A stretch of DNA of 64,000 nucleotides from an uncultured Planctomycetales bacterium (GCA_964612665.1 CAZTCI010000003.1:207734-271733), one strand, 5' to 3'; positions 44,271 through 44,871 are shown, counted from the stretch's first letter. Notes: a model not told the origin generated them from the sequence alone. Numbers and translations are program-made.

Positions 44271-44611
44271 TTTTACCATCCTCCTTAGTGAACCGTCCGT
44301 TTTTGGCGAGACGAATGAGCCCCATGCGTTTTTCAATTTAGAGGGCAAAAATTTGACTACTGTTTTTTAAAAACTTTTCTGACAAAGCGGCGGCATTATA
44401 ACATAAAGGGTTTTAGGTGCAATTAAATTTCTTTTGCCTAAAAGCATTTCAGCATTTTCTCAATTGCAAAAATAGTTTTTCAAATAACAACAGCTAACTC
44501 AATATGCTCTTTAACAAGAAACCGTTTTCTCCCCCCCAAAGTCCCACCTTGTTTTCTTCACATTCGTCGGGTATCCTTTCTTTCGACTATAGTATTTTGT
44601 ACATAGAAAAA

Positions 44612-44680
44612 GGCAAACCGCTCGTAAGAGCGGGACCTAGGCACGACAGGAAGCAAAAAGAAATAAACCGTCCTAGCCCA
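44612..44680 (+). ncRNA. Candidate structured leader element upstream of the giant gene: GGCAAACC - GCUC GUAA GAGC (GNRA-capped hairpin) - GGGACCUAGGCAC ... GUCCUAGCCC
   Basis: Locally resembles the 5' half of a GEMM-I (c-di-GMP-I) riboswitch, GGCAAACC-hairpin(GNRA)-GGGAC, but lacks the conserved GCAAAGCC junction. Shares the 11-mer GGCAAACCGCT with the element at 26966-27066. Confidence 0.25.
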
Positions 44681-44871
44681 GCACAACCTACCTGAAAACG
44701 CTTCTAACATTTCAGACCCGCTGGGGCAAAGCTACAGGATCCTTAAACGGACAGCCAGCTACCTATGCAAAGACGCCCAAGACTCATCCGAAATTTTATC
44801 TATCCCAGAACCATCGGCCACACAAAAGCGATGGATTTTCGTGGTTATTCCAAAAAAGCAAAGGACAATTT

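Follow-up and report, generated by a model that had tools for sequence, protein, structure and literature searches.

The leader of a giant secreted-protein gene in the stretch of DNA that we analysed (64,000 nt in total, hereafter the window) probably contains the aptamer of a riboswitch of the c-di-GMP-I (GEMM-I) class, located at 44602 to 44767 on the plus strand, and we put the probability of this reading at roughly 0.7. An aptamer of GEMM-I type can be followed from end to end over that interval on the plus strand, with two additional hairpins, A and B, standing within it. Its parts, and the gene that it presumably regulates, are as follows.

44602 to 44606, plus strand: 5' strand of P1 (CAUAG), which pairs with CUAUG at 44763 to 44767 in the unconstrained MFE fold and is aligned to P1 of the covariance model R1 (described below)
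44607 to 44612, plus strand: J1/2 (AAAAA) and then G44612, the equivalent of Vc2 G20, fitting the AAAAAGGCAAA consensus of RF03167 and of the metagenomic relatives
44613 to 44614, plus strand: 5' strand of the closing pairs (G-C and C-G), with its partner at 44726 to 44727, invariant in 9/9 sequences
44615 to 44636, plus strand: AAA, the 6-bp P2 stem CCGCUC/GAGCGG with a GUAA tetraloop, and GAC, as seen in the sequence and in the MFE and centroid folds
44637 to 44676, plus strand: inserted hairpin A, CUAGG.GAC ... GUCCUAG, with a 23-nt A-rich loop, from the MFE fold
44677 to 44725, plus strand: inserted hairpin B, CCCAGC ... CUGAAA/UUUCAG ... GCUGGG, from the MFE fold
44726 to 44729, plus strand: 3' strand of the closing pairs (GC) and then AA, with A44728 the equivalent of Vc2 A47, aligned to the GC(G/A)AAgC consensus
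44730 to 44760, plus strand: P3 hairpin, AGCU..GG.UCC UUAAAC GGA..CC AGCU, from the MFE fold and aligned to P3 of R1 and RF03167
44761 to 44767, plus strand: J3/1 (AC, with C44762 the equivalent of Vc2 C92) and the 3' strand of P1 (CUAUG), from the model alignments and the fold
44872 to 56850, plus strand: presumed regulated gene, an ORF for a secreted multidomain protein of 3,992 aa with a signal-peptide-like N terminus

The intergenic region between gap, on the minus strand, and the giant ORF, on the plus strand, is 601 nt long (44271 to 44871), because gap starts at an ATG at 44270; the first-pass annotation had described a 520-bp leader (44350 to 44871), which falls short of this full span. 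Pfam matches in the giant protein comprise nine Big_7 and five fn3 domains, an apiosidase-like catalytic domain, a Laminin_G_3 domain, and a polysaccharide lyase 14 domain. The giant secreted protein may serve attachment or predation. Downstream of gap lies a type IV pilus cluster, likewise on the minus strand, whose PilB ATPase has an MshEN domain by Pfam, MshEN being one of the two domains that widely serve as c-di-GMP receptors (PMC12448109). A secreted Ig/fn3/CAZyme giant protein encoded beside a type IV pilus cluster with an MshEN-containing PilB is a context that fits GEMM. The leader also holds a small hairpin, UUUUAGG..CCUAAAA, which is present as previously annotated and runs from 44411 to 44443 rather than to 44447. 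Two mechanically called ORFs, at 44504 to 44695 (plus strand) and 44558 to 44710 (minus strand), overlap the covarying RNA and were rejected as unsupported genes.

Unconstrained folding of 44598 to 44775 gave exactly P1, P2, A, B, and P3 in both the MFE and the centroid structures, at -41.3 kcal/mol. The stability of this fold is not much above that of shuffled sequences (z = -1.48 only); the helices of P1, hairpin A, and P3 are all short and rich in AU, and A and P3 have only -5 to -6 kcal/mol each. All of the core letters that are invariant in the family are kept here, namely, GGCAAACC, G..A, GGGAC, GCAAA, and the ACC before P1, and the linker after the closing pairs reads GC-AAA-GCU (44726 to 44733). 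No linker nucleotides stand between GAC and A, between A and B, or between B and the closing G-C pairs, and the P2 internal loop thereby becomes a four-way junction. The 11-nt tetraloop receptor motif was not recognisable in the short P3. In Vc2, the two guanines of c-di-GMP have their pairing partners in G20 and C92, and a further contact to the ligand comes from the A47 backbone (PMC5888326). By our own alignment, which transfers these Vc2 numbers onto G44612, A44728, and C44762, all three equivalents are kept, and c-di-GMP is therefore the ligand predicted from the sequence.

Several of these parts had been seen in the first-pass annotation, with small errors of position. The string GGCAAACC-GCUC-GUAA-GAGC-GGGAC is indeed present, at 44612 to 44636 and not at 44613 to 44640, and the second helix that had been suggested downstream of it is real and corresponds to hairpin A, CUAGG(CAC)GAC...GUC CUAG, at 44637 to 44676, the earlier coordinates having been off by 1 to 4 nt. 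The GCAAAGC junction that carries the A47 equivalent had been reported as missing; it lies at 44726 to 44732, where it is followed by the P3 hairpin and the closing strand of P1, and hairpins A and B displace it by 89 nt from the conserved GAC.

The Rfam search that had been proposed earlier returned no family at its gathering score over the whole window, and the match came instead from R1, a covariance model of the expanded layout. The best Rfam match, to RF03167 (c-di-GMP-I-GGC), covered 44603 to 44767 and the full length of the model (positions 1 to 80) with 22.9 bits, corresponding to an E value of 0.0057 for the leader and 0.52 window-wide, against a gathering score of 59. RF03167 probably ranks first among the Rfam models because it includes P1; three lower-scoring matches from the same clan, RF01051 among them (gathering score, 35 bits), were suppressed under it. 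In the RF03167 alignment, 108 nt stand where the interior of the P2 arm has 19 nt, and the scores stay below threshold because the models penalise an insertion of 89 to 108 nt; judged by the curated cutoff, the element thus falls outside the family. The c-di-GMP-II model (RF01786), which had been named as a further candidate, gave no match at E values up to 10 on either strand of 44250 to 44950.

R1 was built from two metagenomic relatives (L018 and L082) only, without the window, and has 181 positions and 49 pairs, distributed over P1, the closing pairs, P2, A, B, and P3. In the 64-kb window it gave a single, full-length match at 44598 to 44771 on the plus strand, with 45.5 bits and an E value of about 3e-11, R1 E values being rough as the calibration was shortened. 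Five basal pairs of A and six of B were aligned in the window. Among the other expanded elements, six scored 47 to 95 bits with R1 and L016 scored 25 bits; canonical GEMM-I aptamers scored 20 to 60 bits, so the R1 score shows membership of the GEMM-I core and not of an expanded subclass. A sequence-only nhmmer profile made from 17 canonical aptamers of the fetched loci matched the window with 34.8 bits (E = 4.4e-10) once 44637 to 44725 had been deleted in silico, while in the intact window it found the 5' half alone at an E value of 0.0033 and the 3' half at 0.99. The first-pass annotation had left it between a variant GEMM-I-like aptamer, placed before a giant gene beside a type IV pilus cluster, and a coincidence, and these homology tests favour the variant.

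A shared 11-mer, GGCAAACCGCT, had led to the further suggestion of a wider cis-element family. The 11-mer does recur, at 26991, but such sharing is at chance level: ten 11-mers of the element occur elsewhere in the window, against an average of 16 for random segments of 174 nt. Position 26991 sits inside a separate, very stable GC-rich hairpin at which no RNA model matches; the cis-element family was rejected, and that hairpin is unrelated to the aptamer.

Relatives of the element were sought in metagenomes with the pattern GGCAAACC-N4-GNRA-N4-GGGAC-N74-104-GCAAAGC. Of the 120 stretches returned, the majority are canonical aptamers, with GCAAAGC directly after GGGAC and a second GCAAAGC that belongs to a tandem copy. 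However, at least nine loci (L016, L017, L018, L029, L047, L050, L082, L114, and L122) have the layout of the window, with GGGAC followed by one hairpin and then another without gaps, GCAAA(G/A)C, P3, and the P1 closing strand. A single extra nucleotide occurs at the same insertion point in 12 further loci, which suggests that the site tolerates insertions. The G+C content of the expanded-element loci runs from 39% to 65%, and their hosts are therefore diverse. Rfam gave a clan match in five of the nine expanded elements (31 to 37 bits), and only L050 passed gathering, with 36.5 bits against the 35 of RF01051.

An R1-based alignment of nine sequences, the window and eight relatives, was examined for covariation. 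Standard pairs occupy 96.5% of the cells, against 72.7% after shuffling and 32 to 47% when the partners are slid, although the paired percentage is inflated because the alignment was fitted to the model structure. Compensatory changes occur in 33 of the 49 pairs overall. By helix, they are found in 4/5 pairs of P1, 4/6 of P2, all six basal pairs of hairpin A, and 5/6 of hairpin B, and P3 also covaries. The helix of hairpin B is 100% paired in the alignment, and its pairs 1 and 3 are almost always C-G. The compensatory changes in A and B are evident as well in independent single-sequence folds of the relatives. Behind the other expanded elements lie a YtxH-like operon and genes for an FG-GAP surface protein, for a Big_9/cadherin-like protein, and for an RlpA-like protein, which are typical GEMM associations. 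At a further expanded locus, small ORFs were read as Flp-like pilins, and Pfam gives no match for them.

The part of the leader that follows the aptamer contains the following features.

44768 to 44871, plus strand: candidate expression platform, the remaining 104 nt of the leader, from the folds
44805 to 44844, plus strand: interrupted hairpin with a U-rich 3' side, a platform candidate from the folds
about 44860 to 44864, plus strand: Shine-Dalgarno (SD) sequence AAGGA, with the start codon at 44872

Terminators of GEMM riboswitches overlap or follow the aptamer, and a common design is one in which the ligand prevents termination (PMC1950547). Such structures can be seen among the expanded relatives: the L122 stem takes in the 3' strand of P3/P1 and runs into U6, and terminators lie downstream in L017, L050, and L016. 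For the window, we combined whole-leader MFE folding, aptamer-enforced folds, co-transcriptional prefixes, duplex scans of all aptamer segments, and SD/AUG accessibility, and none of these leader folding models yielded a convincing aptamer-coupled terminator or SD-sequestering switch. The segment 44833 to 44846 is complementary to the 5' strand of P3 (44730 to 44742) at -13.5 kcal/mol, a value that 1% of shuffles reach, uncorrected for the seven segments tested, and no other aptamer segment stood out in the duplex scans; 44838 to 44853 could pair with the SD/AUG region. Start-site accessibility did not change consistently when either the aptamer or the P3/44833-44846 duplex was enforced. A sigma-70-like promoter was looked for on the plus strand and not found. 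TATAGT at 44588 to 44593 is a candidate promoter element, from which the start would fall at about 44600.

An aptamer of GEMM-I descent that has decayed or become idle, its regulation having been lost, for example with the platform after arrival in a giant-gene block, would account for the absence of a clear expression platform in the folding models, and the history of the locus has a bearing on this. The nearest homologues of the GAPDH and PilB proteins come from Omnitrophota MAGs. The nearest GAPDHs (84 to 87% identity, Omnitrophota) are found in a different neighbourhood, without the giant gene, and the gene order in related Omnitrophota is priA-fmt-galT-galT-gap. The window has priA at 59080 to 61008 and fmt at 58064 to 59014, both on the minus strand, with a TPR gene and the opposite-strand giant gene between them and gap; in light of the relatives' gene order, a lineage-specific insertion seems to have placed the giant gene, together with its leader, between fmt and gap. 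The pilus cluster is kept in relatives, at 67 to 72% identity, and the region upstream of it differs. R1 found no match in about 110 kb of related Omnitrophota loci. The only other copies of the leader that were found are 100% identical and come from three assemblies of runs SRR12313477-79, and searches via the giant-protein N terminus, gap synteny, and PilB synteny retrieved no orthologous leader from a close relative. In the N-terminus search, the domain used (DUF4082-like) is modular and widespread, and an Ig domain in the query dominated the matches; three genome loci belonged to unrelated organisms, and the retrievable fragments begin at contig edges.

A decayed aptamer would also agree with the weak AU-rich helices and the low z score, with the 23-nt A-rich loop on hairpin A, and with the absence from hairpin B of the GNRA cap that about half of the relatives have. 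However, all invariant core nucleotides and all helices are intact, AU-rich helices are normal in a genome such as this (the G+C of the window is 44%), and the element stands in the correct orientation, 104 nt from the start codon. We consider decay unlikely, and a working c-di-GMP-I aptamer remains the preferred reading.

Slightly less probable again is a different ligand, with the four-way-junction subclass sensing another cyclic dinucleotide or a related signal, or needing a second input at A/B. The insertion abuts the C of GAC, which we take to make a tertiary (inter-helix) contact in Vc2. Moreover, small changes in GEMM-I can retune ligand specificity, as in the cGAMP-sensing GEMM-I RNAs (PMC6140456). 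However, the positions equivalent to G20, A47, and C92 carry the canonical G, A, and C, and the element is neither a G47 "GGC" variant nor of the A20 type. Among the relatives, hairpins A and B differ in length, show no sequence relationship, and have no loop sequence in common, and this argues for a putative scaffold rather than a second ligand pocket.

A chance resemblance or a non-RNA element, such as a protein-binding palindrome or a minus-strand terminator, is very improbable, since for all that the Rfam scores are below threshold and the reverse complement of P2 with TTTGCCTTTT after it fits a terminator pattern (44633 to 44618, minus strand), both R1 and the canonical-aptamer profile single out the site on the plus strand only, five helices line up with those of a covarying family, and a minus-strand terminator would have upstream of it only the antisense of the giant gene, with gap starting 330 nt further on. 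The minus-strand terminator at 44633 to 44618 was rejected as a by-product of the conserved AAAGGCAAACC and hairpin, being the reverse complement of P2 and the conserved AAAGGCAAA.

In the c-di-GMP-I reading that we favour, the core of P1, P2 arm, AAA linker, and P3 is intact and the 3' side of the P2 internal loop has been opened to take in A and B. Presumably, P2 would stay stacked on the closing pairs, and A and B would stack on each other alongside. By analogy with known members of the class, binding of c-di-GMP would stabilise P1 and P3, and the stabilised P1/P3 may then alter, in cis, how the giant gene is expressed. As an additional domain, A and B could adjust affinity, folding kinetics, or specificity.

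A full-text literature search and the 2007 description of GEMM (PMC1950547) turned up no GEMM-I RNA whose P2 internal loop holds two additional hairpins, although absence is not thereby proven; the class itself is well known, and the two-hairpin peripheral expansion is apparently undescribed. Recent studies of Omnitrophota giant genes noted the adjacent secretion/pilus loci and left riboswitches and c-di-GMP unmentioned. A broader and much more tentative proposal, which we hold to be doubtful as it stands, is that the two-hairpin insertion marks a distinct, undescribed structural subclass of c-di-GMP-I that occurs in diverse uncultured bacteria and is mostly missed by Rfam thresholds, and that in Omnitrophota it would put a giant secreted polysaccharide-degrading/adhesin protein under second-messenger control.

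Curated covariance-model thresholds miss real riboswitches with large peripheral insertions. Many more of them would probably be recovered from metagenomes by a covariance model made for the expanded layout, and the number of c-di-GMP receptors counted in little-studied phyla would probably shift. Giant genes beside secretion/pilus loci are a noted feature of Omnitrophota, and a predicted c-di-GMP sensor before one of these genes provides a testable regulatory hypothesis. The insertion, lying at what we take to be an inter-helix-contact nucleotide in Vc2, also offers a naturally occurring test of how additional domains are accommodated or put to use by the GEMM-I fold.

In comparison with c-di-GMP-I (RF01051, Vc2), the element has the same P1/P2/P3 junction, AAA/GAC internal loop, 6-bp stem, GNRA loop, and AAA linker, and by our own alignment the same G, A, and C at the three ligand-contacting positions. 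As first described, the GEMM P2 arm has a 2-bp stem and, beyond a 3-nt internal loop, a 6-bp stem that ends in a GNRA loop; its linker is AAA in virtually all cases, and the second hairpin is more variable (PMC1950547). About half of GEMM members have a tetraloop receptor, mainly those with GAAA loops, and none was found with a GYRA loop (PMC1950547); with the GUAA (GYRA) loop of the window, a receptor in P3 would accordingly not be expected, and no obvious one is seen. The position 5' of a gene for an extracellular protein, here 104 nt upstream of the start codon, is likewise shared, GEMM riboswitches being placed ahead of genes with extracellular, membrane, or motility functions. The window differs from RF01051 in its 89-nt two-hairpin insertion between GAC and the closing G-C pairs, in scoring below the gathering threshold, in its very short P3, and in having no terminator that overlaps P3.

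RF03167 (c-di-GMP-I-GGC) is the best-scoring Rfam model, with an alignment that is full-length and includes P1, but its consensus is GCGAAgC, with G at the A47 position, whereas the window has GCAAAGC. We read "GGC" as G20/G47/C92 and rejected the GGC-variant label for the window, which has A at the A47 position. With the cGAMP-sensing GEMM-I RNAs and with c-di-GMP-II (RF01786), the element would share the sensing of cyclic dinucleotides and a place in the leaders of surface-related genes. An A at the G20 position is the hallmark of GEMM-Ib, and the window differs from the cGAMP-sensing RNAs in keeping G there.

Tandem GEMM-I pairs resemble the element in the distance from GGGAC to the next GCAAAGC (74 to 104 nt). 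However, the window has the GGCAAACC..GGGAC module, GCAAAGC, and the P3/P1 closure only once each, and its intervening hairpins are without aptamer core sequence. Given the tandem-like spacing, the expanded layout might be imagined to have arisen by fusion of a tandem aptamer pair, which is speculation. Several of the expanded metagenomic elements differ from the window in having a GNRA-capped hairpin B, a longer P1 with an AA bulge, or clear terminators. They agree with it in the insertion point, in the two hairpins with zero-nucleotide linkers, in the core, and in a total length of 170 to 200 nt. The relative L082 has, in addition, a similarly short P3 (AGCUACGGAUCUC AAAC ...), and it precedes a gene for an Ig-domain protein.

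The gene order in two related Omnitrophota loci (L010 and L013) is priA-fmt-galT-galT-gap, with all genes on the same strand. Between fmt and the GAPDH gene, gap, the window carries the giant gene and a TPR gene (56738-58036), both on the opposite strand, and synteny with both loci is broken over 44872-58036. Since synteny with related Omnitrophota is broken here, the block comprising the riboswitch and the giant gene looks like a lineage-specific insertion.

The intergenic region between gap and the giant gene contains an AT-rich stretch, 44365-44484, upstream of the riboswitch. 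Several overlapping inverted repeats occur within it, as follows.

44411-44443: hairpin
44365-85/44464-84: 21-nt inverted-repeat pair
44454-44473: palindrome centred on CAATTG

The sole sigma-70-like promoter match of the intergenic region, at 44483-44454 on the minus strand, is directed toward gap. The stretch 44365-44484 is probably the promoter/operator region of gap and not a part of the riboswitch.

Two further palindromes and a biosynthetic cluster were found elsewhere in the window.

2467-6771: sugar-nucleotide and nonulosonic-acid-type biosynthesis cluster
16277-16335: long near-perfect palindrome, GTGTTAAGTGTCAAGTGTTAGGTGTTACA..TGTAACACCTAACACTTGACACCTGACAC, flanked by genes that both lie on the minus strand
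26966-27066: imperfect GC-rich palindrome of roughly 100 nt, between the convergent genes 25406-26935 (plus strand) and 27099-28199 (minus strand)

The palindrome at 26966-27066 folds at -60.5 kcal/mol (z = -5.96 versus shuffles) in a genome of 44% GC, and no Rfam family matched it. It is a striking candidate structured element or terminator. The 11-mer GGCAAACCGCT occurs inside it, and on this the first-pass annotation had based a possible cis-element family shared with the giant-gene leader; kinship with GEMM was rejected, the palindrome being unrelated despite the 11-mer. The palindrome at 16277-16335 gave a weak mir-1502 look-alike in Rfam on both strands (E of 0.02-0.1), an identity that is surely spurious. 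This palindrome probably serves either to terminate transcription in both directions or to bind a protein. The biosynthetic cluster encodes a HisF-like cyclase with a glutamine amidotransferase, a cytidylyltransferase, a DegT aminotransferase, and a Polysacc_synt_2 dehydratase, which suggests a capacity for surface glycan synthesis or pilin/flagellin-type glycosylation.

Possible alternative pairings were noted in and near expanded GEMM-I aptamers, those with two hairpins between GGGAC and GCAAAGC. At about 4860-4926 of metagenome contig Ga0209515_10003594 (L082), two alternative 3' halves, GAGAUAGCUAAGCUACCGAAAC then GAGAUGGCCGGGUUACCGAAAC, stand in series, and the single 5' half could be joined with either one to make up P3, J3/1, and P1. 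The arrangement may represent a partial duplication or a device in which the two pairings exclude each other. In another metagenomic locus, L050, UGCCUUUAUCGGC followed by U7 lies downstream of the aptamer (about 4014-4050), is preceded immediately by a local decoy, AAAGGCA, and is the perfect complement of the aptamer's own 5' segment GCCGAUAAAGGCA (P1 5' strand, J1/2, and closing pairs). The predicted terminator is of an unusual design, in which the entire aptamer would be enclosed. A weak echo occurs in the window, with AUAGAAAA (44603-44610) set against UUUUAUCUAU (44794-44803). Also in the window, CCGUUUUCU (44522-44530) is complementary to the downstream AGAAAAAGG (44605-44613), which covers the last part of the P1 5' strand together with J1/2 and the equivalent of G20. 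Were transcription to begin upstream of 44522, aptamer folding could face competition from that pairing; the complementarity may equally be due to chance.

One extra nucleotide (A, G, or U) separates GGGAC from GCAAAGC in 12 loci (L022, L030, L032, L040, L067, L069, L090, L092, L098, L102, L103, and L117) whose aptamers are otherwise canonical GEMM-I. This is the point at which the expanded form carries its two hairpins, so the site seems permissive to insertion.
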